64,000 bases of DNA from an uncultured virus (IMG/VR IMGVR_UViG_3300008262_000099). Its lineage: Duplodnaviria > Heunggongvirae > Uroviricota > Caudoviricetes. The position numbers and the translations under genes were made by a program. Below, one piece after another: positions 9,184 to 58,917 of the stretch. Position 1 is the stretch's first letter. Each line of letters opens with the position of its first letter. The stretch is from the IMG/VR virus record IMGVR_UViG_3300008262_000099. One strand, 5' to 3'. The notes under the pieces were generated by a model. That model did not search any database, was not told where the DNA came from, and was given only the letters and a program-made list of their open reading frames with translations.

Positions 9184-10424
9184 TGGCAGCTGATAATGAA
9201 CTTCGTCTTCTGTCTAGAGCAATTAGAACACGGGATATATCTCCACTTCTTGAGGCTGGTGTAAAAGGTGACTGGTTCTTTGTAGAAGACAATAGATCAG
9301 TATGGAATTTCGTAGTAAATCATTGGACTAAATATCAAGAAGTTCCTACAGCTGTGACTGTAAAAGATAACTTTCCTACATATAACTTACTTGCTGTAGA
9401 TGATTCACTGGATTATTTATTAGATCAATTAATTGAATATCGTAAACGTCAAAAAACTATTGATGTAGTACAGGCTGCAGCAGAAGCAATTCAAGGCGGA
9501 GATCATGATGCAGCTATCGCTGCTATGAGTGTTGGCGTTGCCAAGATTGCAGACGAAGGCATAAAAGATTCTGGTGATATCGATCTTACGGACAATGCAT
9601 CACAGCGTTTTGATGAGTATCTATCTATCAAGACTAGACCAAACGGTTTGCTTGGTATGGCTACCGGGTTTCCTACAATCGACAAGGCTACTGCCGGATT
9701 ACAGCCAGGCCAGTTAGTAACAATTATTGCTCCACCAAAGACAGGTAAGTCTGTCCTTGCAATGCAAATTGCAGTTAACGTCCACGAAGATGGTTTCGTA
9801 CCCATGTTCCAATCATTTGAGATGACTAACATTGAGCAACAACATCGTCACGACGCAATGCGTGCCAAGATTGCACATTCTCGCTTGATTCGTGGATCCT
9901 TAAATCAACAAGAAGAAGCTCGATATAGAGCAGCACTTTCAAAGATGGAAAGTATGCACAACTTCTATCTAACTGACGCAGTACCTTCAATGACGGTTAC
10001 GGGTCTTGCTGCCAAGATTGATAAGCTTCGTCCCAATATAGTATTTGTAGACGGTGTTTACCTTATGTTAGATGAAATCACGGGGGAGATTAACACACCT
10101 CAATCTATTACAAATGTCACCCGTAACTTAAAGAAATTAGCAATGTCCAAAGAACTTCCAATGGTTATCTCTACCCAGGTTCTTCTTTGGAAGATGAAGA
10201 AGCGCCAAGTTTCGGCGGACGCCATTGGATATTCATCTTCGTTCTACCAGGACTCAGATGTAATCCTTGGTCTACAAAAGCAAGATGAGAATGACGATAC
10301 ATCTAGAGAGTTAAAAATTGTTGCAAGTCGCAACTGCGGGCCAGCATCCACTGACCTGTTATGGGATTGGGAAGAAGGGAAGTTTGAAGAGTATGGATCT
10401 CTATTTGGAAACACATCCATTTAA
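9183..10424 (+). CDS. dnaB: Replicative DNA helicase DnaB-like
   Basis: TGFPTID, APPKTGKS, SFEM, VFVDGVYLM, SSSFYQDSD, SRN. Confidence 0.9.
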   Translation: MAADNELRLLSRAIRTRDISPLLEAGVKGDWFFVEDNRSVWNFVVNHWTKYQEVPTAVTVKDNFPTYNLLAVDDSLDYLLDQLIEYRKRQKTIDVVQAAAEAIQGGDHDAAIAAMSVGVAKIADEGIKDSGDIDLTDNASQRFDEYLSIKTRPNGLLGMATGFPTIDKATAGLQPGQLVTIIAPPKTGKSVLAMQIAVNVHEDGFVPMFQSFEMTNIEQQHRHDAMRAKIAHSRLIRGSLNQQEEARYRAALSKMESMHNFYLTDAVPSMTVTGLAAKIDKLRPNIVFVDGVYLMLDEITGEINTPQSITNVTRNLKKLAMSKELPMVISTQVLLWKMKKRQVSADAIGYSSSFYQDSDVILGLQKQDENDDTSRELKIVASRNCGPASTDLLWDWEEGKFEEYGSLFGNTSI

Positions 10425-43329: not shown

Positions 43330-45294
43330 CTACCGTCTACGAGAACGCTTTTTGATAGCACCAACTACCACCGCTTTGGCAAACGATAGTAACTCGCCAG
43401 CATGAGAGATACGACCAAAGATTTCTGTTCTGTGGGCTACCTTCTTCATATCCTTGTTGCTGTAGTGATTATCAAATGATTTAGCGTCCATGATTAGGAC
43501 AAGCGAAGTAAGAATACCTCGCTTAGAGATGCGTTCAATCAAATCATCATTAGGGTCGTGGTTAAACTCACCGTCAGTAATTATGAACAGCATCTTATTC
43601 TTCTTGCGTGAGGACATGAGTAATTGTTCTGCCTCAAGCAATGCGGTATAGGGATTAGTTCCGCCGTCACCGTATATAAACTTATACTGGAGACGATCGG
43701 CTTTCTCCGCTCTGTTGTAGGCAACTTCGTTTTGATCATCAAAGGCATACACAGTAACTGGTGCGCCTATGTGTTCTAACGCTCGCTTAATAGTCCAACA
43801 CGCTATAGATGCCTTTCTATCATTGCTTTGGAATGACATAGAGCCTGACCTGTCAACACAGATAACAGCCTCGATGTCACATCCATCATCGCCTTCATCC
43901 CATCTATCAAACGCTACGTCGGGTTCACACCCAGCCATAACTCGTTTGAAGTTTAATTTGCCAGAGGGAGTTTCTCTAATCCATGATGGTTCGGATTCAT
44001 CACGCAAGCGTTGTAGTTCTTTCGCAAACTTGCGATAACTTACTATTGCTTCTGCAGGAATCTGAGTCCTATCAAACTTGCCTCGTTTACTTTGATCTTC
44101 ATACCTACCATCGCCACCAACAATTACTTTTTGTTTGGCTTTGATGTCAGATATAACATCTTTGTTGTTCAAAGTATCAAAGACAATATCATCTAGCATG
44201 TTTCCAATGTGATTAGGAACACCACCTACGCTGGGAGTATGACCAACACCAATGTCTGGTGGTGTATCTAGATTACTCTCGCGTATATCTAGTGCTTCAT
44301 CTTGAGTGCGGTGGTTTGTAATGTTTTTTCCACCACCACTACCTCCATCATCGTCTTGTGGTTTATCTTGCTTACCACTAGGCTTTTGATTACCGGCTCC
44401 TTTTACTTTTGGTTTGTAGGTGTAAGGAGATTCTCCTACGCCTTGACCTTTAGCTCGAGCAGCATCACGTTCCTGTGCTTTGCCAGGTTCTGGTCTTCCT
44501 TTAGCCATGGGAGCACGACCCCCACAGCCTGTAGGACCACCGAGAGTGCATCCACCATCTTCTGGATTGTAGTTGTATGCACTAACTTGTGCTCTAATTT
44601 GGTCCAGTATTCCTGTTGGTTGTAGAACATAGTCATTGAATTGTTGAATCAATTCTTTGGCTCGTTCATAATCTCGAGGAAATACTAACAGCCGATACTC
44701 ATCAATGATTCTAGCCAATGTAGGTATTAGTTCTGGAAAAGCAAACTCATCTCGATATGCTTCTCGAACTTCTACCGGCAAGTATCTGCGACCACGTATC
44801 GCCAAATAGGTTCCAGAGACATCTGATTCATCTTCTGAAAGCCAGCGAGCACAGGTAGATGATAGGTATGGAATAACAGATGGGTAGCGAGCAGTAAATA
44901 GGGTCTCGATTCGTTGATCCTCGAGAATATTCATGCTCTCCATAAGTTGATTTTCTATAACCCATTTCACCATTTCTGTGCCTTTGCGAGGCGTATACAG
45001 TTGATGACAAAGCTCATGGTAGTTGAGGCCGGTAACTTGTGTCAATGTTTCCAAGTCCATGTCTTGAATCTCGGAAGCATTAAATGTGATTGTTGCACCG
45101 TCAGACCAGGCTGGAGCCGGGCCTTGATTTACAACATTCACAACAATCGGATCGCCAGTTAGAACACGATCTGCTTGTTCATACACACGACATAGAGTTC
45201 CTAGTTGTAGTGCACGTTCCTGCAAATCTTCATCCCTAGCCTCCTTGATATACCAAGAGTTTTCTTCATCTCTCAGTCCATCAATCAATGGCAT
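43330..45294 (-). CDS. VWA-domain protein with N-terminal HExxH (CobT-like partner)
   Basis: YHELCH...NILEDQRIE; MIDAS DRSGSM, GGT, ITDG. Confidence 0.85.
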   Translation of the reverse strand: MPLIDGLRDEENSWYIKEARDEDLQERALQLGTLCRVYEQADRVLTGDPIVVNVVNQGPAPAWSDGATITFNASEIQDMDLETLTQVTGLNYHELCHQLYTPRKGTEMVKWVIENQLMESMNILEDQRIETLFTARYPSVIPYLSSTCARWLSEDESDVSGTYLAIRGRRYLPVEVREAYRDEFAFPELIPTLARIIDEYRLLVFPRDYERAKELIQQFNDYVLQPTGILDQIRAQVSAYNYNPEDGGCTLGGPTGCGGRAPMAKGRPEPGKAQERDAARAKGQGVGESPYTYKPKVKGAGNQKPSGKQDKPQDDDGGSGGGKNITNHRTQDEALDIRESNLDTPPDIGVGHTPSVGGVPNHIGNMLDDIVFDTLNNKDVISDIKAKQKVIVGGDGRYEDQSKRGKFDRTQIPAEAIVSYRKFAKELQRLRDESEPSWIRETPSGKLNFKRVMAGCEPDVAFDRWDEGDDGCDIEAVICVDRSGSMSFQSNDRKASIACWTIKRALEHIGAPVTVYAFDDQNEVAYNRAEKADRLQYKFIYGDGGTNPYTALLEAEQLLMSSRKKNKMLFIITDGEFNHDPNDDLIERISKRGILTSLVLIMDAKSFDNHYSNKDMKKVAHRTEIFGRISHAGELLSFAKAVVVGAIKKRSRRR

Positions 45295-45305
45295 GTTTAT
45301 CCTTT

Positions 45306-46712
45306 CTAAACAGAAGTTGGGACAAAACCATTAACCCACTGTTCAAGTTCTTGTTCAGGAGTTAACGATTCTTCAGGCTGTGTAACAGTGACAGGCACTT
45401 CTATACCGAAGTCAGTCTTAATGTTGTGTTCGTGAGTTTGGAAGATAAGGCGAACTGACGCTGCTTCTTCTGGGGAAAAGTGAGCGATGAAGTTTTCAAC
45501 TGCAAACTCATAACTCAAGTCACCCACGAACTGAACGAACTCAATCAACATATTGGTTGAGATTGGGGTTTCGTATTGACCTTTAGCAGCTTCAACGCGA
45601 AGTTGCTTAGCAAGATTCAACAGAGACTTGGAACTAACCAATTTAGACTCGACCTTGTCATCGTAATCCCAAGGAATTTGGATATCAAAGCGATTACGAA
45701 ACGCGAAGTTGAGCGGTGTAGTGCCGATATAATCTGGATTCATTGTTGCAAAGATAGTCAAGTCTTTATGAGCCTTGATTACTTCACCCATGTGATCTAG
45801 TAGTGATATCGAACGCTGTCCTGCCAACAATGTGTATAGAGTTGTGTAGATTTTAGGGTTGATGAAGTTGACCTCGTCGAGGAGCAACACACCACCGTTG
45901 CGAATAACATCGGTGACTGGACCATCAATCCAAACCCACTTGCCATCAATCTGAGTCATTTTGCCAAACATTTGGCTTGGCTCCAATGATGCATTGCCAG
46001 ATACCAACGCAAGTCTGAGCATACGTTCAGCAGCCCAAGCTTCGACAGATGTTGTCTTGCCGGGACCTGTTGGACCGTATAGAAGCACGTTGATGTTGTT
46101 AGAACGGGCATAGTCGTAGATAGCAAAGTCTTCTTTGCCAAATACCTGCCTATGCACATACTTTTTAGCCAACTCCATTGGTGGCACGACTGCTAGCGCA
46201 ACATACGCTGGTGTCGGTGTTACCACAGGTGTTGATTCGATTGGCGTGGCGATTGTTTGTGTTGGCACAGCCCCCATTGCCACCGGAACTACAGAGCCAG
46301 CTTGACGACGATTATCGAGAACATAGTCATCGAGTGAATCATCGCGCTCGCTTACTTGTGAGTAAATATCCGGAAGGATATTACTCAAAGTATCTGTAGA
46401 TAGTGTTGCTTTGGTATGAGCCTGACACGCTTTAGTGCCCAAGACAGGGGAATAACCCTTGTCAGTCATAGCACGCTCATCAGCAGGCGTAACATATACG
46501 CCGACTGGAGTTCGTGTAAGTTGCTCGGCTGTGCCGATCTGTCCCACGAGTGTGTCGTATTCAGTTTCCTCCCATTTATTGTGAGGACCCTTAGTCCCAT
46601 CAGTGACCCGTGTATAGATTCGTACGAGCTCGCCATGTGGCGTAACAAGAACTTGACGGCGTTTCGTTCCCATTATTGGCTCGTAGGATTCTGTGAATAT
46701 AGCGATATCCAT
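45306..46712 (-). CDS. MoxR/CbbQ/CobS-type AAA+ ATPase
   Basis: GPTGPGKT, W.DGP, LLLDEVN, ATMNP.Y.GT..LN.A..NRF. Confidence 0.9.
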   Translation of the reverse strand: MDIAIFTESYEPIMGTKRRQVLVTPHGELVRIYTRVTDGTKGPHNKWEETEYDTLVGQIGTAEQLTRTPVGVYVTPADERAMTDKGYSPVLGTKACQAHTKATLSTDTLSNILPDIYSQVSERDDSLDDYVLDNRRQAGSVVPVAMGAVPTQTIATPIESTPVVTPTPAYVALAVVPPMELAKKYVHRQVFGKEDFAIYDYARSNNINVLLYGPTGPGKTTSVEAWAAERMLRLALVSGNASLEPSQMFGKMTQIDGKWVWIDGPVTDVIRNGGVLLLDEVNFINPKIYTTLYTLLAGQRSISLLDHMGEVIKAHKDLTIFATMNPDYIGTTPLNFAFRNRFDIQIPWDYDDKVESKLVSSKSLLNLAKQLRVEAAKGQYETPISTNMLIEFVQFVGDLSYEFAVENFIAHFSPEEAASVRLIFQTHEHNIKTDFGIEVPVTVTQPEESLTPEQELEQWVNGFVPTSV

Positions 46713-46797
46713 TTCCTACCCCTTCTCGGTATGTGGATTCGTTGCTGTAAGCAATTTGCTTACAGTCTCCGGCACCGTGCCGGAAATCTATGTGCAA

Positions 46798-47260
46798 GAG
46801 AACAGAGGGCGTGGGGTATAAATACATGCCGATAGGCCTATCAACTTAGCTTCATCGGTGATGAAGAACCGTGCGCCTTCGCATTAACCTTCAATGCGGA
46901 AAGGACTGGCTGCGATAATTTTAGTCGGATTTCCCCATGTATCAGGGAACCCACGCTCGCCTCTGTCTCCTGTGTAAGGTGGGTGCATATGCTAACCACC
47001 TGTTGTTTTGTATGAGTTACGCACGAAGGAGGGGGAGACTTGAGCGCTACTTAGCATCACAACCTCTGCGACTTTTGGACAAGACAACTGCATGTTCGTT
47101 AGCACACTCTCCTTTAGGGAGTCATTTGGATAGTTCCACGTGGTGTATCGAAACAAGGTCTTGGGTTCACCTCTGGTCCGTTCATCTATAGATTAGGTTG
47201 ATTTTAGCTGTTGGGGCAAGGGTCTCAGTAACCTCGAGTGCTTCTCGTCATACATAACCC
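46798..47260. ncRNA. Candidate structured non-coding RNA
   Basis: No credible ORF; long-range stem 46798-46815 / 46950-46969 enclosing several hairpins. Confidence 0.5.
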
Positions 47261-47263
47261 TAT

Positions 47264-47560
47264 TTAGAATGGGTCGGGGAATTCTTCCGCAAGAACTGAT
47301 CGTCTCAGTTCAAGGGGCAACTCTTCTGGGTGACGAAGGGCTATCGTTATACCCATCATGTTGGCAATGTGGAACGTAACGCAGATAACACAGGCGGGAA
47401 TCATTTCCTTGTGCTCTCTATCGCCGTAATTATCTCGTAAATGAGACATTACTATTCTGGCTGTGTCCACCAATGAACTGCAGTCATCGTGTTCACAATT
47501 TCCTTCATCTTTATTGTTATTGATGAAGTCGTCCATGTTGTACTTATCAAAGTATGACAT
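47264..47560 (-). CDS. Hypothetical Cys-containing protein
   Basis: SD GAAAGG. Confidence 0.5.
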   Translation of the reverse strand: MSYFDKYNMDDFINNNKDEGNCEHDDCSSLVDTARIVMSHLRDNYGDREHKEMIPACVICVTFHIANMMGITIALRHPEELPLELRRSVLAEEFPDPF

Positions 47561-47572
47561 GGTTCTACCTTT

Positions 47573-48136
47573 CTACTTTAGAAATAGACTGAGTTGTCCA
47601 TTTTCTTTTGCTGCATTCAGCGTGTGCATTGCTACCAATTTGTTGTTTAAAACTAATTGTTGATAGATAACTCCAGGCATGCCTTTCTTTATCGCATCAA
47701 CAATAGTCCAAATGGTTGCGCCTACTTCCGCTGGTTTAGAGCGTTTGATTACTTTTACTGCAAAGTCTTTGCGTTCCAAAGCAAAAGCAATTGACGCTGC
47801 ATACTCTGTAAGAGTTTTGAGCGTGCTGCTTCCATCTGGTGTGCTTCTTAACCATGCGGCAAAAGTGTAAAACAAATCATCAATAGCGGTATCGTTGCCA
47901 TTATTTACTGACTCCAATACTTCTGTAATGATTTCTGCTGTTACTGCTTCACGAAATGACTTGCTTGCTTCAGACAATGCTACAAAACCTTTAGGCATAG
48001 TATTGCTGTAGACAATGATGTTAGTGCATTCCGTTACAAGTTCTTGAGCTGATGATGTTTCTGGATTGTTCAAAGGTAATTCATAGATTTGAACTCCAGA
48101 AGTTATCGGATCAAACTCAACTGATGTTTGGGACAT
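47573..48136 (-). CDS. Hypothetical protein
   Basis: 187 aa ORF. Confidence 0.5.
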   Translation of the reverse strand: MSQTSVEFDPITSGVQIYELPLNNPETSSAQELVTECTNIIVYSNTMPKGFVALSEASKSFREAVTAEIITEVLESVNNGNDTAIDDLFYTFAAWLRSTPDGSSTLKTLTEYAASIAFALERKDFAVKVIKRSKPAEVGATIWTIVDAIKKGMPGVIYQQLVLNNKLVAMHTLNAAKENGQLSLFLK

Positions 48137-48830
48137 ATGCTGCTATCGCTTTCTCTAGTTCGCTTGGTTTGTTATTAACAAGAGTGCCGTGTTGTAATCG
48201 CAAAGGTGTTCCGTCCCATAGCATAGTTACTAACTGACTGCCATAGTCTTTCTTACCATAACCGTTACAACCAAAGCACTTCTCTGTTTTTGTTGTGTAA
48301 TGGTTTGTACTTAAACCATGAACACACTTGTGTCTGTGCCATCCGCCATTCAGTTTTGAAATTGTAGCGGGCATGAGAGTTGTTTTATCGCACTCTTCAG
48401 AGCCCAGCGAATGACAATACGGAATAGTGCAATAGCCATCGACAAGTCCAGCGCCATGACAGCGCCTGCACTTTTGTATCTTTGGTGGTTTTCTTGTTGC
48501 ATCAGCTAACACAATGTGAAACTTATTGTTTCTTTGATACAAACTAGTAATTCCTGAATACATTCGAATTACTTCTCGAACACTCCAAGAATAGAGGGGG
48601 TTGTAATACCCACCCCACCTTGTTCGTCCAAGTCCAGCCTGTATTGTTATTGTGTCATCTGGATGGAATACGACAACTGCTTGATTAGTCCAAGGATAAA
48701 AGACTTCGATGTCTTTTGGATTTGCTTGGGTTTTGCGAAGCCGTAGTCCACGAGTGTAAAGTGGGCGTTCCCACTTTTTGCGACCGCCTGCTAACCAGTC
48801 GACCGCTTCTTGATAGGTATTGATAATCAT
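48117..48830 (-). CDS. Protein with DnaJ-type CxxCxGxG zinc motifs
   Basis: CRRCHGAG and CFGCNGYG. Confidence 0.6.
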   Translation of the reverse strand: MIINTYQEAVDWLAGGRKKWERPLYTRGLRLRKTQANPKDIEVFYPWTNQAVVVFHPDDTITIQAGLGRTRWGGYYNPLYSWSVREVIRMYSGITSLYQRNNKFHIVLADATRKPPKIQKCRRCHGAGLVDGYCTIPYCHSLGSEECDKTTLMPATISKLNGGWHRHKCVHGLSTNHYTTKTEKCFGCNGYGKKDYGSQLVTMLWDGTPLRLQHGTLVNNKPSELEKAIAAYVPNIS

Positions 48831-49123
48831 TAGATTACCTCTTTCTCACGATTGAGATACTCGAACGTGCGTTCCCTCTCTGCTTCTCGAATGCGGGCAA
48901 GTTCTTTTTTGGATACTTGCTCGTCTTCTTCGAACCAATGAATAGAAATGGGGAACCTTCTTGCTCTATTTGGTGATAGAGCATAGAGAATGTCTCCCAT
49001 TCCGTCAATGACTCCAGAGTGGTAGGCACGACTGTGCATGTCGTCTAAGTCCTGAGCATCTATCTCAGAACGAAGCATCATGTCTTCAATCAGTTTGAGA
49101 ACTTTCTTCTTTCTCAGTATCAT
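48830..49123 (-). CDS. Hypothetical protein
   Basis: SD GAAAGG. Confidence 0.55.
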   Translation of the reverse strand: MILRKKKVLKLIEDMMLRSEIDAQDLDDMHSRAYHSGVIDGMGDILYALSPNRARRFPISIHWFEEDEQVSKKELARIREAERERTFEYLNREKEVI

Positions 49124-49139
49124 GTGTGCCTTTCTGCCA

Positions 49140-49740
49140 CGTGCTACCCACTATGGATAACACGAGCGTGCCAATGTAAACTTTGACATCTACATTGGCG
49201 GACTAGATTAGACTGCTAGCCCAGTTATTGGGTATGGACAATCGTGAACACGCAGTGTTCGTGCTGCCATCCAACTTGAACTTGGAAACACATTGAATTA
49301 CTGAAGGTATTATCGTGAGACTCACAACGTGGCCTCTGTTGCGTTGTAGAATTACATACATAGTCTCGGTCGCGTCTCTTACTATGCATCTACGCTCATT
49401 ATGGGAGGACTAACGTGACCCACTGGGTGCCTCTGACCCCATAGTTCGTACCCTTATGCTTCTTCGCCCCCTTTGTATTCAGACATAGTCTCCCGAATAC
49501 ATACTCAGCTCTCGGTGATAATCAACAGCCTATTCAATGTGTCTCCAAGAATCTATAAGCAGTTTTTAGTGAGTCATGCTCAGGACTCAGGCATTCGCCC
49601 CATGCAATAACATCTATTACTGTCTGTAATAGGAATGTAACGCACTTATTGGTAGCCGGGCAATTCCCATTCCCGTTTACCCCTTATTTATAGTCGTTGG
49701 TTACGACTCCCTTCCTTTCGATGCATGCATCTACTAGGCG
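49140..49740. ncRNA. Candidate large structured non-coding RNA
   Basis: About 600 nt without a listed ORF; 18-bp long-range stem and many local hairpins. Confidence 0.55.
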
Positions 49741-49743
49741 GAA

Positions 49744-50109
49744 TTACTGTCTGTTGAAAGCAACAGAAAACTGCGTAAAGAATGCAGCGATTTTGAATCC
49801 AATTTGATGCAATGGATACAAATGGTCAGACTCTTCGTTACCTTTTGTATTCCATGAACGAGCATCAAATGGAGTTGATAAATCCAAATCTAACTTGAAT
49901 AAACTGTCTGTAAATCCAAGCATGATTTCAAAACCATAATCATATTTAGCCTTGGTTGTAAAGTGAAACGCAAAACCTCGGCCGTTGTATGGGTCATAAA
50001 GACGATAAAACTTGAACCCAGGAATAGCATTATCTTTCATGTTTTGTTCAACATCATCAAAGAAACTATCCACATCGGGATAATCCATGATTGTTCTACC
50101 TTCGTGCAT
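49744..50109 (-). CDS. Hypothetical protein
   Basis: SD GAAAGG; preceded by pseudoknot motif. Confidence 0.55.
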   Translation of the reverse strand: MHEGRTIMDYPDVDSFFDDVEQNMKDNAIPGFKFYRLYDPYNGRGFAFHFTTKAKYDYGFEIMLGFTDSLFKLDLDLSTPFDARSWNTKGNEESDHLYPLHQIGFKIAAFFTQFSVAFNRQ

Positions 50110-50254
50110 TTGTGTCCTTTCTTTTGTAGTTGATAAGCAGTTTATCCCTTCACATGCTTAGGTGACGAGTCGCGTTATTACCTCAGGTAACCGACTAAAA
50201 AGACCAACCACACATCTACCTCTCATGGATAGCCTATTCGTGTGTGCGGAAGAT

Positions 50255-51001
50255 TTACATACCTTTTACTGATTCAAGTTGCTTCTTGAGTTCGTCTTGC
50301 TGTGCCTCTAACGCAGCAATTTTCTTCTTCTTGATTTCTTCTTTGGCTGTTGCCAAGAATGAGGCTAATTCTGCTGCCTCATCAAGAGTCAATGAAATAG
50401 TGCGGAACCCGACCGTTACTTCGACTTCCATACTATGCTCATTTATTTCATATTTGAGGTTTTTATCGTCGCATTCACGTTTGCAATAGCAATACGATGG
50501 GCGACATCCTTTTGGACACATTTCTTCTGTCACCTTCCTTTCTTTTACTAGTCCATGGGCTTTCATCATGCTGTCTCTATGCCACGCAGCAAAGTGCTTG
50601 TCATACGTAGACGCTCCTTCTTCAATAAAAAAACGTGCTTCTATTCTACTTATTTCGTAGAAGCAATCGTTTTCTTCATCTCTCGCAAAACGAGAAGTCC
50701 AAGAAAAGTTGTAACTCTTTTCTCTTACGTAATCTAAAGGAACAATACGATAAAGCAACAAGGTGTCTGATCTATGACGTTTGCCGCAACCAATAGTTTT
50801 AATACACCAATTAACATCTTCATCCTTCAACGTTCCGGGATACTCTAGAAGATAGTTTCGGTATTTATACCATTCGCTTGTTGCAGAAACTTTATGGTAT
50901 TCACTAATTGATCTACGAGACCAACCATACGAACGACCATTCAAGAACTCACGTTCTACCTCTGCTAACGTAGGAAGTTTGTTTTCATTTTCAACTTCCA
51001 T
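50255..51001 (-). CDS. Hypothetical protein with C-terminal coiled coil
   Basis: ATG at 51001 after GAAAGG. Confidence 0.55.
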   Translation of the reverse strand: MEVENENKLPTLAEVEREFLNGRSYGWSRRSISEYHKVSATSEWYKYRNYLLEYPGTLKDEDVNWCIKTIGCGKRHRSDTLLLYRIVPLDYVREKSYNFSWTSRFARDEENDCFYEISRIEARFFIEEGASTYDKHFAAWHRDSMMKAHGLVKERKVTEEMCPKGCRPSYCYCKRECDDKNLKYEINEHSMEVEVTVGFRTISLTLDEAAELASFLATAKEEIKKKKIAALEAQQDELKKQLESVKGM

Positions 51002-51078
51002 GTTTGCCTTTCTTCTGCCTGTGTTATGAAACACAGACAGACAGAGCAACACAGGAAAGCCTGTGATGCCCTGTCCAA

Positions 51079-51285
51079 CTATCTTCCACTTGACCTACCC
51101 CCTGTGTAAACAAAAGGGTCTGTTTTATTTACTATTGTGTAGCCCTGTTTAGGAACTAGTATCAAACACATGCGTTCGGTTAGTTCTGATGGGCGATTAT
51201 TGAAGCATTGTTTCTTCATGCAATAGGTGTAGCCAAGGTCCCATCTTTCTGGGGCAACTGGCTCACCACATGAGTCACAGAGCAT
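51079..51285 (-). CDS. DksA/TraR-like C4 zinc-finger small protein
   Basis: CDSCGEPV..ER...G...C...C. Confidence 0.5.
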   Translation of the reverse strand: MLCDSCGEPVAPERWDLGYTYCMKKQCFNNRPSELTERMCLILVPKQGYTIVNKTDPFVYTGGRSSGR

Positions 51286-51427
51286 GGTTCTCCCTTGATT
51301 TGCTTATTTGTTATTATTGATACAAGAAAGCGGTGTATCTCCGCTTCTAACTTAGAATGTATAAAAGCCAGCTGCTGAAGGCTAATCTCACCTTCAACAG
51401 AGGCTTTTATTTCTAGTTGTGTTTTCA

Positions 51428-51694
51428 TTACCAAGTCCTCCCAGCAAATCTTTCTGCTGCTTCAACTTGGTTGTCGAAATAATCTCCTGTTGAACAAGAG
51501 CCTGTAATTTCGTTGTATGTCCATACAACATAGGGGTGATGTGTAGACATAGGTGCATAGCACAAGACGATAGTGTTCATTGGATCGTTTTGAACAGGCT
51601 TGAATAACAAGACTGTCGCTCCTTCAGATACACCTTTACCTTGTAAAATGGTTCCGCATCTAATAACAGATACGACAGGATTTGAATCCTCCAT
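51428..51694 (-). CDS. Hypothetical protein
   Basis: HPYVVW...GDYF; SD GAAAGGAG. Confidence 0.55.
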   Translation of the reverse strand: MEDSNPVVSVIRCGTILQGKGVSEGATVLLFKPVQNDPMNTIVLCYAPMSTHHPYVVWTYNEITGSCSTGDYFDNQVEAAERFAGRTW

Positions 51695-51740
51695 TGTGTT
51701 CTCCTTTCTGTTAGTTCTTCATCTTATGGGGAAAGTCGGG

Positions 51741-51803
51741 GAAAAACAAAAAAAAATAAGCCCCTTCAACTTATAGTCGAGCAACTATAAATTGAAGGGG
51801 CTC
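51741..51803 (-). terminator. Strong intrinsic terminator
   Basis: AGCCCCTTCAA.TTATAGT / ACTATAA.TTGAAGGGGCT stem followed on the minus strand by a long T-tract. Confidence 0.85.
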
Positions 51804-51852
51804 TTCCCCATTGCGCAGCAAAAACTTCGCGGGGACCTTGTTGGTCATTACA

Positions 51853-51987
51853 TTAGTCAGTTAGGTCATAAAGACCTGGTTCAACTCTCTCAATACGCTC
51901 TCGGTTATAACGACGAAGGCGAATAAGATTGAGGATTGTAAGATAGGCGATACATACAGCACCGCCAAATAAAACAAACTCAAGCAT
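51853..51987 (-). CDS. 44-aa single-TM peptide (not in ORF track)
   Basis: SD AGGAG; MLEFVLFGGAVCIAYLTILNLIRLRR... Confidence 0.55.
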   Translation of the reverse strand: MLEFVLFGGAVCIAYLTILNLIRLRRYNRERIERVEPGLYDLTD

Positions 51988-52189
51988 TGACTACTCCTGT
52001 CTTCCAATGGGGAATGTGATTACTATCTGCTCTACCGCCAATGGCTTTCCAAGCCTCACGCTTAGCATGAGCCTCAGGGCTACGCCCATTTACATGGGTG
52101 AAGTTAGTCTTTGGGGGTTGGGCTGGTCCAGGGTTCTTCTTGAACGCTTTACCATTCTTGCGTTGGCTATTAGTCGTGCCTTTTGGCAT
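51980..52189 (-). CDS. Small basic protein
   Basis: ATG 52189 after AAGGAGG; MPKGTTNSQRK... Confidence 0.6.
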   Translation of the reverse strand: MPKGTTNSQRKNGKAFKKNPGPAQPPKTNFTHVNGRSPEAHAKREAWKAIGGRADSNHIPHWKTGVVNA

Positions 52190-52692
52190 AACGACCTCCT
52201 TTCTTATAGCCAAGAGCATACACAGGAATAGGCGTTGATCCAACAAGGGTAGAAAGGTGTAAACCCAAGTGTTATAGCCGACAGGAAAGGGGGTTCTTCC
52301 TATGTATGCTCTAAGCCATAAGGTATAGAGATACACGCCCCAACCGACAAATGAAAGGGGTCGGCGGGGGCGTGTTCTCTACTTAGACAGAAGACACAAG
52401 ATAAGGTTTAGGTAGCCTACATACGAAGGGAGAAAAGCAGACCGACAAGGCTACTCTTACCAATAAAGGCAATTCGCATTGTTTAGGTCACTCCCTATCT
52501 ATACCCATAGTTATCCGCCGACTATTGGAGTAGGCGAACTATCTGCTAATAGCGAAAGCGGTAATCTCTAGACCTGCTCTTACTCTCAATGATGAGAGTT
52601 CGCTAGAAGCAGTAGCCAAATGCTAACTATGAGCATAGATAGGGGCAGGGAGAGCCTAGACTCCCCCTGCCATGTGATTTACATCACGATTA

Positions 52693-53199
52693 TTACGCTA
52701 CTGCTAACTCTTTCGCCATGAATGACTCTTGTAGTGCCGTCAATCTATCCAACGCTTCGGCATACGCTTGCTTTTGCGTGGTAGTTGGCGAAATGAGGTT
52801 TTCCTCGATTTCTTTGATTACTTCGGACAAGTTCTCCAAACGGGAGGTAAGTGCTGACCCGTCGGCTTCCTTTTGCTTCTGCTTCAATAACTTAGAAGCG
52901 AGGTCTTCCTTACGGAAAGCGTCGAGTTGAGCAAGGATAGTAGTTGGGTCACTAACATCAATGCGCTCGAAATAACGACCGATAAGCGTAATGTTGGTCT
53001 TTAGGAACTCAGCACTAACGCCTAATGAGTTGTAATAACCCGCCCACGCACGACCACGCTGGGAAGCGTTTGGCTTCTCAGGGAGAAGGTAGTTGGGGTG
53101 GGTAACGAGTTCGCTTGTAAAGGCGGAGGCTACATTCTCAATAACGAGAGTAGTAGAGCCAGCAACCATGTCACGAAGTAGTTCTATTTGAGATTTCAT
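52693..53199 (-). CDS. Hypothetical protein, first gene of the minus-strand block
   Basis: SD GAAAGGA. Confidence 0.6.
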   Translation of the reverse strand: MKSQIELLRDMVAGSTTLVIENVASAFTSELVTHPNYLLPEKPNASQRGRAWAGYYNSLGVSAEFLKTNITLIGRYFERIDVSDPTTILAQLDAFRKEDLASKLLKQKQKEADGSALTSRLENLSEVIKEIEENLISPTTTQKQAYAEALDRLTALQESFMAKELAVA

Positions 53200-53494
53200 C
53201 TCAAATCCTTTCTGTCTTCACCTATACGAGGTGTATAGGCTAGTGAGCACCCCGACCAATGCTACAAATGCTGTCGAGGTGCTCCACGCAGTAGGGCTAC
53301 CTAACCTGAACTTTTGGCGTTTGCTGAACCGACCCCCTTAGAAATCGATTTGCCACCCCCCACCCTTAGCGCCCCAACTTCCCACCTTTCGGGCAGGTAA
53401 AACAAACTGCTACGACCTAAAACACAAGGCAGTGGCCGGATAACTCCAGGGTCTTAGCATTTCAGGCAGTAGCCGGGGGAGTATCATATTTTTC

Positions 53495-53965
53495 ATGGCC
53501 AGACGTAATATGAATACAGATTCAAGCTATTTTCGTCGTAGGCAAGAGGCGGAAGAGCAACAAGGCCAGAGAACTTTTAATATACAACAAGCTATCGCGG
53601 ATCGCATGGGCGCCCCTACAAACCTGCTTGATCAGGGAAATGCAGGCTATAACCCATTTGGACCAGGGTATGAGGTAGTTGTTGCTCCTACGACTAATAT
53701 GAGCTTTCCTAGAGCCCGTGTAATGGGCTATAACAGGAGCACAGAGACCTTAGTAATCATCTTTAGGGATGGTAAGTGGATCATGTACTCAGAGCCCATC
53801 CCAGTCGATATGTGGGAAGATCTACGAGTATCTGACTCCACAGGCAAATACTTGAAGTATTCCGGCATTGATGATATCCCCTGGGAAGATGTAACTAACC
53901 AACCTGGCATGCTCCCCCGCAAGCCAGCTGAGAATATGCAGTACGGTAGCGAAGAAGGTCGCTAG
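53495..53965 (+). CDS. KTSC-domain-like protein
   Basis: GYNRSTETLVIIFRDG..Y...P...W..L..S.STGKY. Confidence 0.7.
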   Translation: MARRNMNTDSSYFRRRQEAEEQQGQRTFNIQQAIADRMGAPTNLLDQGNAGYNPFGPGYEVVVAPTTNMSFPRARVMGYNRSTETLVIIFRDGKWIMYSEPIPVDMWEDLRVSDSTGKYLKYSGIDDIPWEDVTNQPGMLPRKPAENMQYGSEEGR

Positions 53966-54039
53966 CTCTGGTAGGATTGTCGTAGCCTGTAGGGTGTATT
54001 ACACCACCCCGGGCCCCCGCGAAAGTCTGAAGGGCTTAA

Positions 54040-55477: not shown

Positions 55478-56104
55478 ATGAAGAACACGGTTAACAATAT
55501 GCCAGTAACCCCAAACTCCGGGGGTGGTGGTAGTCGAGGCGGTTGGCTTGGTAAACTATTTGGAATGGTCAACGCCCGCAGTTATGAAATGTTAGCACGA
55601 GATAGATTTGCTTGGCAGCAAGGTCTTATTACCGAAGAGATGGGTAAACGAGATACCAATAGAGCTGCAGCTCAAGCCGCAGGTAAAGTCGTTGGTGAAA
55701 AAATGTCGCTAGCAAATAAAAGAAATGCTGCGTTTGCGTTTGAAAGAAAGCGCACATCTAAAAATAAAAAAACAGGTGAGTTTAACTATCCAGATCTTGT
55801 TGATTTTGGTCCTGCTGAAGATCCATTAAACGCTCGTTGGGGATCTCGTGCAGGTGAGCGAGCTGCATTGGCCCGTGCTGCTGGTGGAGCCGGAGGTGCA
55901 GCAACAAACCCTCCAACTGGTGTTACCCCACCTACAGTTAACAATACTCCAACAACCCCACCTAATCGCAATGCAGGACTAGACCCATTTAATGATGGCC
56001 CATCTTTTAATGATCCAGCAAAAGCAGATCAACCTAATCTTCAAAACCCTGTAGCTAAAACACCAAAAGCTAAAAAACCAAAAGCACCTAAGGCGGGCGC
56101 ATAG
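55478..56104 (+). CDS. Low-complexity hypothetical protein
   Basis: Gly/Pro/Ala-rich ORF. Confidence 0.5.
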   Translation: MKNTVNNMPVTPNSGGGGSRGGWLGKLFGMVNARSYEMLARDRFAWQQGLITEEMGKRDTNRAAAQAAGKVVGEKMSLANKRNAAFAFERKRTSKNKKTGEFNYPDLVDFGPAEDPLNARWGSRAGERAALARAAGGAGGAATNPPTGVTPPTVNNTPTTPPNRNAGLDPFNDGPSFNDPAKADQPNLQNPVAKTPKAKKPKAPKAGA

Positions 56105-58917
56105 TGGCAAAAAAGAAAAGAATAACTAAGAAGGCTGCAGCTACTGCACAAAAAAGAGTTGCAAAGAGTCTTAGTAATAAACCAAAAGTTGAGAAACCAG
56201 AAGTAGTAAGAGACAACACTGGTCTTGAAGCTAAACTTAACGATCCTAGACCTTTAGGTTACGGGAATACTTTAGTTCCACAAACTGAACGTGGAGAAAC
56301 CGGTTTAGATCCTAGAGATGTAGCCGCCGATGCTGCAGATGTTGCAACCGTTAAAAAACTTGAAGCAGAACCACCTACAGTAAACCCAACCCTTACTGCA
56401 CTTGTACAGGGACGACGTAGACAACAAAAAGCTGCTGAAAGCTCTAGAGTAGTTCCTCTTGAAGAAGCTGTTGCTGGAGTTGAAGCACAAGCTAATCGAG
56501 GAGATTTTCCAGAACCTACCCCAGGTCAAGAACGCATTCAAGAAAGCCAACGTGGTGGAAATACGGGCACAGGCAATATTGATTACAGGTTTTTACCTGC
56601 AACCCCACCAGAACAAAAGCCAGCAACTCCTGGTTTAATTGGAAAATTTACTGCACGTGCAGGGCGCGGAGCTAATCTACAAAACCCTCCCCTAGCTGTA
56701 AGTCAAGGAGAAGGTCAAACTAACGTAATTAACTCTACTGCACGTCGTCTTGCAAAAGGATCACTAATTGATAACGGTGTTGAGCCTACAGATGAGAATG
56801 TTACTTCAGAGTTAGTTAACAACACCTCGCACGAACAAAAAGCAAGAGTTATGGCTTACACAGGTCTTTCTCACGATGACATTCTTAATTACATGGGTAA
56901 AAATGAACGCGAAGGAAGAACCCGTTTGGGTACCCTTCACGAAACTGTTATGCAGTTCCACCGTTCTCGTCAAAAACATGACGTAACACGTGAGATGGGA
57001 CTTGTACGCAACAATGATGGCTCTTTCACAGCTACTCCAGATGCAGACAATCAATATTGGCAACATCCAACTGAAACCGTAAAAGTAAACGGATTAGATG
57101 TCAAAAAAACCTATCGAGTTTCTGACATGCACCCGGACATGGTAAAAGAATTAACGCATCCATCCGGATGGGGCGGACACAGTGGAAATGCAGACTTTGA
57201 AGGTGTAACCGGATCCGCTGCTTCTGGAACTGCTTCTCCAGTAATTAACCGTTTTGGTCACGTTAAGTCAGGCCCAAGAAATGCAGAAACTTGGAGATTC
57301 CAAGCTCCACCTCCGGGTTGGGGAGAAGATTCTTCTATTGAAGGTATTAAATCTGATCACATTACAATGCTTGGAAGTGGCATTACCCCAAACGTTATAA
57401 ATCTTGTAGAACGAGTTCGTCAAGGATATAAAGGCTCTGTTGATTTAGGTACTGCCGAAAAACCAAAGAGGTCTAGTGGCGAATTAACTATTAGTAAAGA
57501 AAACGATGATGAAATTGAAACTGAAGGCGATCGCAGCAGAAAACGTCGTTTATTCCGATCAGTAACACGAGGAGCCCCTAAAGAAGGTCCAGTAGGTGGC
57601 ATGTTCTATACCTCTCCAGAAGGTTTTAGAGTAGATGCTGAAGGTGTTGCTAAAAGAGGGCAGGCTCAAGGGGTTAATATTCCTTCTACAAGCGTGCCTG
57701 GTCCAGGATTTACTAACGAAACTGAATACGTAGAAGAAAAGTTTAAGAAGCCTAGAAAGAAAAAAGAAAAAGGCGCAATTGTTGGACTAAAGGGTGAAGG
57801 CATACCTGCAGGCTTTGATGATGCCAATAACCCAGTACCACTACCTCCTCGTGCAGGACGTCGTGGCGGCACTACCGTAATCGTTGACCCAGAAACTGGA
57901 AAGCGATCACAAAGACGTGCTGTGCTAGTAAGACAAACAGGTTTACAAACTTCTATGAGGTCTGCTGCAGAATCTTCTGCAGAAGTGCTTGTTGGACAAA
58001 ATGAAGTTGCTGAAGAAATTTTAAAGGGAAATAGAAGTCAACAGTTTAGACAACTAGTTCAACCACCAGCACCTACTGGAAGAGCGTTTATGGGTCCACC
58101 ACCAAAACAAGAGGTTATTGACTTTGGAACTGCTAATCTTTCATTAGGTGAATCAAAGCGTACCGCACCAGACATAGTAAGACAAATAGTAGAGGGACCT
58201 GTTAGTAGAGTTCAATACAATATGGAGCAGGCAGCTACTGGTGGTACCGGATATTTTGAAAAATATGTTGGAAATTCTGATAAAAAAGAATTGGTTACAG
58301 AACCAATTCCACAATCAACGAGTGCAACTATTAGGAATAGTGTTCAAGACCCAACGTATGGAAAAGTAACCTACATGCCGGAATTACCTGAGCGAGAAAA
58401 GGAAGAGAATAAAGTTCCTACTGGGGCTATCGGTCAAAAAGAGTTTAAGCAAATTACTGCTAGACAGCAAAGAGAAGACGAGGCAGACGCCGCTGTCAAA
58501 GCAGCTAGAGCAAAAGCTGATGAGTCAAGAGCTCCACTTCCTGGACAATACATGTTTAATTTCCAAGATCCTGCAAAACCTGGCGCTATGATTAGTCGTC
58601 AGTTACTTGGGGGAACTATTCGTCCTCTAACAGATGCAGAAGCCTCTGTTGAACAGAGCGGTTGGAATACCGTTCGTGGTATGAACCCACGAGGTATTAA
58701 AGATCGTCCTACTCAACAAACCCCACCTAGTTCTGGTACCGCACCTCAGGTTAATAAAGGTGAAAGACTGGTTCGTAGTGGAGATGTTGAAACTGGTCAA
58801 GAAGGTATTGCAGTTGTAGGTAGTGATAAAAAAACTGGAGACACCGCTGTACGACGACTTAAGGGGCCTAAAGAATCTGTTCGTAACGAAAGAAATGCTG
58901 GCAAGAAGAGAAGCTGA
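56104..58917 (+). CDS. Large, probably disordered hypothetical protein
   Basis: 937 aa, no Cys, rich in P/G/E/R/K/T. Confidence 0.6.
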   Translation: MAKKKRITKKAAATAQKRVAKSLSNKPKVEKPEVVRDNTGLEAKLNDPRPLGYGNTLVPQTERGETGLDPRDVAADAADVATVKKLEAEPPTVNPTLTALVQGRRRQQKAAESSRVVPLEEAVAGVEAQANRGDFPEPTPGQERIQESQRGGNTGTGNIDYRFLPATPPEQKPATPGLIGKFTARAGRGANLQNPPLAVSQGEGQTNVINSTARRLAKGSLIDNGVEPTDENVTSELVNNTSHEQKARVMAYTGLSHDDILNYMGKNEREGRTRLGTLHETVMQFHRSRQKHDVTREMGLVRNNDGSFTATPDADNQYWQHPTETVKVNGLDVKKTYRVSDMHPDMVKELTHPSGWGGHSGNADFEGVTGSAASGTASPVINRFGHVKSGPRNAETWRFQAPPPGWGEDSSIEGIKSDHITMLGSGITPNVINLVERVRQGYKGSVDLGTAEKPKRSSGELTISKENDDEIETEGDRSRKRRLFRSVTRGAPKEGPVGGMFYTSPEGFRVDAEGVAKRGQAQGVNIPSTSVPGPGFTNETEYVEEKFKKPRKKKEKGAIVGLKGEGIPAGFDDANNPVPLPPRAGRRGGTTVIVDPETGKRSQRRAVLVRQTGLQTSMRSAAESSAEVLVGQNEVAEEILKGNRSQQFRQLVQPPAPTGRAFMGPPPKQEVIDFGTANLSLGESKRTAPDIVRQIVEGPVSRVQYNMEQAATGGTGYFEKYVGNSDKKELVTEPIPQSTSATIRNSVQDPTYGKVTYMPELPEREKEENKVPTGAIGQKEFKQITARQQREDEADAAVKAARAKADESRAPLPGQYMFNFQDPAKPGAMISRQLLGGTIRPLTDAEASVEQSGWNTVRGMNPRGIKDRPTQQTPPSSGTAPQVNKGERLVRSGDVETGQEGIAVVGSDKKTGDTAVRRLKGPKESVRNERNAGKKRS

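Follow-up and report, generated by a model that had tools for sequence, protein, structure and literature searches.

Few large RNAs with complex folds are known from phages and, to our knowledge, none of them has a settled function. The put elements of HK022 and the lambdoid phages consist of two stem-loops of about 70 nucleotides (nt) just after the promoter. In the accessible part of a cryo-EM preprint, GOLLD and ROOL are described as large multi-helix RNAs that are supported by covariation, carried by phages and without known function. Structured-RNA candidates from IMG/VR, as given in the accessible part of Fremin et al. 2023 (PMC10690425), measure 29-151 bases. Here we describe RNA-1, a structured RNA of 267 nt found in 64,000 nt of DNA from an uncultured virus (IMG/VR record IMGVR_UViG_3300008262_000099, Caudoviricetes); this whole stretch is referred to below as the window. 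RNA-1 lies in the leftward small-gene block of an uncultured freshwater myophage of about 104 kb, and is a new class within a known kind, the structured regulatory or non-coding RNAs of phages.

Structure, distribution and library coverage of RNA-1

The minus-strand gene block that contains RNA-1 spans 41.3 to 53.2 kb of the window, as delimited with a greedy map of open reading frames (ORFs) and by inspection of the sequence. Relatives were gathered through the ATPase gene of the window, which yielded 27 IMG/VR loci with 52-100% protein identity; two of them (L001 and L002) are near-identical to the window, and two others (L005 and L006) are relatives at about 75-80% and syntenic throughout. 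RNA-1 and its flanks are arranged as follows.

49283-49549, minus strand: RNA-1 core, 267 nt with 14 helices and 72 pairs, supported by a covariance model and covariation
49550-49743, minus strand: 5' flank of RNA-1, with hairpins and no ORF, inside a 620-nt gap; kept only in L005/L006
49124-49282, minus strand: 3' flank of RNA-1, four hairpins followed by the Shine-Dalgarno sequence (SD) and ATG of a 97-amino-acid (aa) gene (49123), with no U-tract terminator; conserved in L005/L006 and weakly in L012

In BLASTN comparisons, about ten distant loci share positions 49288-49541 with the window at 69-74%, and the genes flanking this piece in them have no DNA-level match. The closing stem of RNA-1, P1, is an inverted repeat (49281-49298 with 49532-49549) that frames exactly this conserved piece. 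A model-free check, in which ten sequences were aligned with MAFFT and folded with RNAalifold, gave 80 pairs, of which 34 show changes that are compensatory. The covariance model R1 (267 positions, 72 pairs), run on the window and 30 viral loci, returned 18 matches (17 IMG/VR loci), the divergent ones scoring 127 and 74 bits. The homologue set as a whole comprises 46 matches, which reduce to 32 distinct core sequences. Among these, 96.8% of cells are in standard pairs, compared with 84.4% when shuffled and 30-41% when the columns are slid by 1-3 positions. Changes on both sides of a pair were seen at 46 of the 72 pairs, and all 14 helices are supported. The 32-sequence alignment was fitted to the model and so leans towards the structure; the model-free MAFFT result agrees with it.

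The invariant G-U pairs of RNA-1 place it on the minus strand, which is the sense strand of its operon. The long closing stem leads into three stacked helices and then into a multi-way junction with conserved purine-rich joining strands. A candidate pseudoknot between GUAACUAU in a loop and AUAGUUAC in a bulge is complementary in the main group of sequences; it shares positions with helix 9, and for divergent members the model-fitted alignment is out of register there. RNA-1 had no match in Rfam at any threshold tried. Identity as a group I intron was rejected, as RNA-1 sits between complete ORFs and has no Rfam intron match. A full-text literature search found no account of RNA-1, the supplements of PMC10690425 being only partly searchable. 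Six contig identifiers were not found in the searchable part of those supplements, outside which files 1, 2 and 4 lie, and fragments of RNA-1 may be listed in them. The comparative alignments show RNA-1 to be a new RNA family, a conserved structured RNA predicted to fold independently.

A gapped pattern made from the conserved blocks of RNA-1 retrieved 19 viral, 19 bacterial and 70 metagenome stretches, which were then tested with the covariance model. Of the metagenome loci, 31 of 70 passed this test; all 19 bacterial loci failed it, in agreement with an estimate of about 25 chance matches for the bacterial collection. Two viral pattern matches, L037 and L049, were not confirmed by the model. 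One copy of RNA-1 is present in each of the five complete genomes (5/5) whose ATPase is at least 67% identical to that of the window. RNA-1 was not found in five complete genomes with an ATPase 52-62% identical, in five fragments, in the 4 bacterial genomes searched, or in a sample of 151 genomes from the phylum to which a metagenome-assembled genome with the record title Actinomycetes belongs.

The nearest relative of the phage, G001, is 104,454 bp long and rated 100% complete. PHROG and Pfam scans of the window identified baseplate wedge proteins, a DnaB helicase and its loader, a primase, a family-A DNA polymerase (PolA), a UvsX-like recombinase, ribonucleotide reductase (RNR), a TGT/DpdA-like protein, Hsp20, SpoVS, an endolysin and the large terminase (TerL). 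Comparison of the window with known phages by megablast gave no DNA-level match. A protein search with the AAA_5 ATPase returned only matches below 60% identity, the best at about 48% in Brevibacterium and Gordonia phages, which are actinophages. The relative L017 carries a WhiB-family gene (L017:4400-4648, Pfam E 2.3e-12), preceded by the same conserved element that lies at 50112-50212 in the window. WhiB is characteristic of Actinobacteria and their phages. Given this gene and the closest ATPase matches in actinophages, an actinobacterial host is likely on sequence grounds.

Parts of an 8-kb query are covered by 20 metatranscriptome runs from 19 studies. Four partial runs from four studies (X9, X12, X14 and X18) were examined as assembled contigs, and all four contain contigs on RNA-1: 49281-49494, 49324-49530, 49374-49538 and, in X9, bins over 49204-49737. 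The base of P1 (49281) is also the exact end of one contig. The RNA-1 contig has the highest depth in three of the four runs, with values that are unable to rank genes: 40.7 against 3-14 in X12, 15.4 against 2-6.6 in X14, and 37.5 for an X9 bin against 13 or less. The exception is X18, with a depth of 5.9 against about 12. A ten-fold local excess is not expected from uniform carry-over of DNA, and the depth on RNA-1 is a hint of expression. Positions 51073-51339 and 53476-54000 had no contigs in any of the four runs, where contigs prove presence only.

A possible switch downstream of RNA-1

RNA-1 always lies on the operon strand, with the next gene 25-140 nt downstream, and this gene differs between loci. 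It is followed by the genes for 97, 237 and 187 aa in the window and L006, by a homologue of the 248-aa gene in four relatives, and by different small ORFs elsewhere. The main subgroup, 26 distinct sequences in alignment A11, has a conserved 5' flank that ends in CCCCGCGAAGTTTGAGATGG before RNA-1 whatever the upstream gene. In this subgroup P1 can extend by 10 bp (95.8% paired, 34-54% when slid, 2 compensatory pairs), and a further hairpin lies downstream (89.7% paired in an imperfect alignment, 33-57% when slid, 3 compensatory pairs). The 3' strand of the P1 extension is at the same time the 5' strand of the downstream hairpin, with seven shared columns (295-301), so that the two pairings would be mutually exclusive. 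Among the 32 distinct homologues, 16 have a terminator-like GC-rich stem and U run within 200 nt after RNA-1, and about 9 have an SD and start codon 25-35 nt past the core. Two further features of the block bear on this arrangement.

51822-51865, minus strand: conserved motif ending in CCCCGCGAAGTTT (the CCCCGCGAAG motif), just past the upstream stop codon and before the terminator at 51758-51803
51758-51803, minus strand: strong intrinsic terminator, a 20-bp stem followed by nine U

The CCCCGCGAAG motif occurs once per genome (G001-G005) and stands directly 5' of RNA-1 in most relatives. Just upstream of this motif and the strong terminator, the window encodes a very basic 69-aa protein (51980-52189) with homologues in L006, L017 and L029; it is a candidate RNA-binding regulator. 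At five loci (L118, L121, L123, L074 and L108), 70-80 nt downstream of RNA-1, a start codon directly follows the U run of the terminator; the sole SD-like purine run there lies just before the terminator stem, and folding of the stem would join SD and start.

We favor a cis-acting leader, since the closing stem in its extended form would compete with a hairpin further downstream, which lies against a terminator or against the SD of the gene that follows. Under this proposal RNA-1 would act on its own transcript, and in most relatives the 3' strand of the 10-bp extension of its closing stem would serve alternately as the 5' strand of the downstream hairpin. Beyond that hairpin would come either an intrinsic terminator or, no more than about 10 nt away, the SD of the following gene. 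A partner that stabilizes the RNA-1 fold, whether a ligand, a protein or RNA polymerase, would determine which of the two pairings forms, and with it read-through into, or translation of, the genes downstream. Once terminated or trimmed, the leader would persist as a stable RNA, which would explain why the highest contig depth falls on RNA-1. We put forward tentatively, at a confidence of about even or slightly below, that the fold state of RNA-1 governs read-through, or translation of the genes that follow, and that the leader survives as a stable RNA. A broader version is more doubtful: RNA-1 would be the founder of a new class of large phage-borne regulatory RNA, sensing a host metabolite, protein or polymerase and flipping between the extended closing stem and the downstream hairpin to gate a small-gene operon. 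With the leader at 52.2-52.7 kb and the CCCCGCGAAG motif, this operon might then be run largely by exchangeable RNA cassettes that recombine before different genes.

Several observations weigh against a cis-acting switch. The genes downstream of RNA-1 belong to several unrelated families without known function and share no pathway or ligand logic, unlike those of classical riboswitches, and no ligand or partner of RNA-1 is known. Compensatory pairs number just 2 in the P1 extension and 3 in the hairpin, and 51-70 of 500 shuffles reach the values observed for the extension. Both the conserved 5' motif and a U-tract terminator are missing from the subtype of the window (window, L006, L012, L015 and L016), which has an 18-bp P1 and four hairpins, then the SD of the 97-aa gene. 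By fold energy, most gaps of the block are inseparable from coding sequence. The assembled contigs give no strand, no ends and no true level, genes cannot be ranked by their depth, and the libraries may contain DNA; co-occurring strains that share an identical RNA-1 could also raise the depth. Finally, a conserved flank and a terminator also fit a free-standing RNA gene.

Such a gene is the strongest rival, possible in our judgment though not probable: RNA-1 would be a stable non-coding RNA acting in trans, bounded by a promoter of its own in the 5' flank and by its own terminator, and a protein of the host or the phage would find in it a scaffold, a sponge or a decoy. Its large and ornate fold with conserved single-stranded joints, its single copy per genome, the retention of the 5' flank whatever the upstream gene, the unrelated downstream genes, the canonical terminator after 16 of the 32 homologues and the top contig depth in three of the four RNA libraries would all suit this role. 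Such a promoter is, however, not apparent, since no sigma-70-type promoter is readable in the 5' flank and the promoter scan is at chance level, and the subtype of the window has neither flank motif nor terminator. Nor does any protein co-occur strictly with RNA-1: the 237-aa neighbor was considered as a partner and rejected, as distant homologues of it are found in genomes without RNA-1, and RNA-1 has no positional link with KTSC, SpoVS or the TGT-like protein.

Other gaps and genes of the block

Between 46713 and 53494 the gaps total 2476 of 6782 nt (about 36%), counted after two gene starts had been re-set to an SD and ATG (51001 and 52189); the largest gap in the rest of the window is 287 nt. 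The gaps and the genes that border them are listed here in order.

46713-47263, minus strand: gap of 551 nt, a lineage-specific spacer homologous only in L005/L006
47264-49123, minus strand: genes of 98, 187, 237 and 97 aa, none assigned to a family; relatives keep the 97/237/187 trio
49124-49743: gap of 620 nt, holding RNA-1
50110-50254: gap of 145 nt
50112-50212, minus strand: conserved element of about 100 nt just upstream of the SD and ATG of a 121-aa gene; 11 loci aligned
51002-51078, minus strand: gap of 77 nt, a spacer that holds a single hairpin and precedes the 248-aa gene (start 51001); kept in L005/L006
51695-51979: gap of 285 nt, part of which may be occupied by a 48-aa ORF at 51861-52007
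52190-52692, minus strand: gap of 503 nt, the leader between the 168-aa and 69-aa genes
52693-53199, minus strand: 168-aa gene, the first of the leftward block
53200-53494, no strand assigned: gap of 295 nt, the divergent intergenic region between the 168-aa gene (minus strand) and the KTSC gene (plus strand)

An alternative genetic code or recoding of stop codons was excluded because TAA, TAG and TGA are all present in all six frames of the large gaps. The estimate of the initial annotation, roughly 2 kb of non-coding sequence, is thereby borne out, as 2.48 kb of 6.78 kb have no open frame under any reading of the stop codons. Repeats within the region are limited to short chance families and inverted repeats. 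A scan for sigma-70 promoters and terminators gave counts at chance level, except for the terminator at 51.8 kb. The whole window had no match to the 4227 models of Rfam 15 at the gathering threshold, and in E-value mode gave only chance matches to miRNA, snoRNA and lncRNA models (E 0.36-9); an ARAGORN scan of the window found no tRNA or tmRNA genes.

Fold energies were expressed as z-scores on the minus strand with dinucleotide shuffles, 100 by the tool for two 401-nt coding controls and 20 of our own for six coding stretches. The z-scores of the gaps were -2.64 (46.7 kb), -5.22 (49.1 kb), +0.45 (50.1 kb), -4.4 (51.7 kb) and -0.78 (53.2 kb), and the gap at 52.2-52.7 kb reached -6.9 over 356 nt and -9.6 at full length. 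The coding controls in the same operon gave -4.35 (46000-46400) and -4.36 (48250-48650), and the six coding stretches -2.6 to -6.5, so that by energy only the gap at 52.2-52.7 kb surpasses the coding background. The whole operon is unusually structured. The gaps had been described as largely paired into stems, a description that does not distinguish them, since their pairing is not above the local background and coding stretches of the operon fold too. Covariation supports structure for 49283-49549, for parts of 52.2-52.7 kb and for parts of 46.7-47.0 kb. As a caution for genome scanning, fold energy alone would mislead here because coding RNA folds nearly as well as the gaps, and covariation is the sole discriminating evidence.

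The leader at 52190-52692 begins with a GC hairpin after the stop codon. Next come a 21-bp stem around a three-way junction, the 14-mer GUGUCUUCUGUCUA and a second GC hairpin, whose C-rich loop is conserved; last is a hairpin of 23 bp directly next to the SD. Of 140 pairs predicted here and compared between the window and L006, 0 are broken and 8 are compensatory, with substitutions mostly in loops. The gap has nhmmer matches in about 10 distinct relatives, and in an alignment of 12 sequences the 14-mer is invariant and the GC hairpin after it shows 3 compensatory pairs. No second copy of the 14-mer was found in the window. UAGAUGGGG forms the 3' strand of an upstream hairpin and has an alternative partner in CUUCUGUCUA. 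The GC hairpins of this leader lack U runs; U-less GC hairpins are common as terminators in Actinobacteria. These features suggest an attenuator-like leader with competing helices. In the RNA libraries, the adjoining 168-aa gene is covered in all four runs by contigs that reach 53289 and 53311 upstream and stop at 52674-52697 in three.

The spacer at 46713-47263 consists of a 5' domain (about 47258-47003), a 3' domain (46967-46801) and two hairpins (46786-46745), followed by the SD of the ATPase gene. Between the window and L006, 22 of its 105 predicted pairs are compensatory, in a comparison of two sequences only and with an ordinary z. Most relatives have a conserved acidic protein of about 80 aa directly upstream of the ATPase, where the window and L005/L006 have the 551-nt spacer; its gene lies at L009:7683-7925, with equivalents in L010, L011, L014, L016, L021, L022, L027 and L029, and the protein has no Pfam family. 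A tblastn search found no remnant of this gene in the gap. Contigs over the gap cover 46817-47247, 46906-47247 and 46967-47219, two of them ending at 47247. We read the spacer as a transcribed and structured lineage-specific sequence that replaced a gene.

Two further gaps are conserved in sequence. The element at 50112-50212 was rejected as a structured RNA, with 1 of 17 predicted pairs compensatory and a gap z of +0.45. It stands 10-25 nt before the SD of unrelated genes, namely the 121-aa family (3 loci), a Cys-rich family (2), a 40-aa ORF (3) and WhiB (1), and would act as a promoter/operator or an unstructured leader. Within 53200-53494, positions 53305-53485 are conserved, with nhmmer matches in about 9 distinct relatives and two GGC(C/T)ACTGC repeats; we read it as a divergent control region with a probable promoter role. 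Both are unstructured control regions, probably read as DNA. The repeated 9-mer, GGCTACTGC, occurs on the minus strand at 52609-52617, 53429-53437 and 53466-53474, with a mismatch in one of these copies. The three sites cluster in the pair of gaps closest to the divergent region, and the 9-mer is possibly an operator; elsewhere in the window it has a single exact copy, at 9686. On the far side of the divergent region lie the genes for KTSC, an HslV-like peptidase and a PASTA-domain protein.

Among the smaller features, an Rfam search of 51002-51078 gave only chance miRNA-like matches. Two predicted minus-strand ORFs of 68 and 70 aa (51079-51285 and 51216-51427) overlap by 70 nt in different frames, and the second has a homologue in L006 (51% identity). 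About 142 bp at 51878-52019 are missing from L001 and present in L002; this segment takes in the 48-aa ORF together with the 3' part of the 69-aa gene. For the eleven ORFs of the block, neither Pfam nor PHROG gave a convincing family, and atlas look-ups of the 237-aa and 248-aa proteins gave no usable lead. The AAA_5 ATPase gene and a gene for a VWA-domain protein adjoin at 43330-46712, a pair kept in all 27 related loci; the PHROG label of the ATPase family is 'porphyrin biosynthesis', and the 5' part of the gene is GC-rich (0.49). A 937-aa ORF at 56104-58917 has no Pfam or PHROG match.

The initial annotation had read the structured blocks as one system of non-coding RNAs and RNA-protein complexes for early host takeover or defence decoying, linked speculatively to candidate RNA-handling proteins encoded in the same stretch. 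The trans-acting alternative described above corresponds to this idea, whereas the anatomy of RNA-1 leans more towards regulation in cis. Its list of proteins stands for KTSC, SpoVS and the TGT/DpdA-like protein (the last by PHROG only), while no HicA-like protein or NTase was found among the ORFs scanned. The proposed links to the RNAs were not recovered: the named proteins lie 0.3-27 kb away, the SpoVS gene at 24 kb and the TGT-like gene at 9-10 kb, and no link was seen. A single system does not fit five blocks of different kinds. As a set, though, the blocks are neither unconserved nor decayed ORFs, two of the outcomes that the annotation had named as refuting it, with RNA-1 conserved, structured and present in RNA libraries and the gap at 52.2-52.7 kb carrying conserved hairpins.

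It is improbable, to our mind, that the structured spacers are simply elements of mRNA processing or stability, that is, nuclease sites and 3' protective hairpins that cut a polycistronic early transcript and sense nothing. Long near-perfect hairpins between genes and an operon that is unusually structured as a whole would be in keeping with this role, as would contigs of different studies that end alike (47247 twice, and 52696/52697), contig ends being only a weak hint; simple processing hairpins, however, would not need a 14-helix fold with junction strands conserved across 32 variants. That the gaps are decayed ORFs or neutral spacers with stems formed by chance is very improbable: the 46.7 kb gap does stand in for a gene of the relatives, with a z below the coding background, and the 50.1 and 53.2 kb gaps are unstructured, but RNA-1, for which compensatory pair changes exclude chance or decay, and the GC hairpin at 52.3 kb keep their pairs through such changes, none of the 140 pairs of the 52.2-52.7 kb gap is broken in L006, and the 46.7 kb gap holds no tblastn-detectable remnant of the 80-aa gene.

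Comparison with known systems

RNA-1 combines a well-supported structure with a defined clade, phages of about 100 kb from fresh water and probably of Actinobacteria, with a single copy per genome and with natural variation in what follows it, be it a terminator, a ribosome site or neither of these, and so offers a ready-made comparison set for work on mechanism. Like the put-type antiterminators, it lies on the sense strand of a phage operon and upstream of terminators (16 of 32 homologues); it differs from them in its 267 nt, its 14 helices and its position several genes into the block. GOLLD and ROOL are two to three times longer than RNA-1. As far as the accessible part of the preprint describes them, RNA-1 resembles these two RNAs in being large, multi-helix, covariation-supported and phage-borne; their Rfam models, in contrast, have no match to RNA-1, and no likeness in sequence or architecture has been shown. 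With the candidates of Fremin et al. (PMC10690425), as presented in the accessible part of that source, RNA-1 shares its origin in IMG/VR and the evidence of intergenic conservation and covariation, whereas RNA-1 as a whole is longer than their 29-151 bases.

The closest likeness is to regulators of the riboswitch or leader type. Like these, RNA-1 has a conserved covarying domain; some nucleotides of its closing stem would also pair in the hairpin downstream, and its members show two putative platforms, an intrinsic terminator or an SD-proximal hairpin. It differs in having no Rfam match, no known ligand and unrelated small phage ORFs downstream, and it is larger than most riboswitch aptamers. 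In its working RNA-1 would be most like a leader or riboswitch-type regulator, minus the shared function of the genes downstream.

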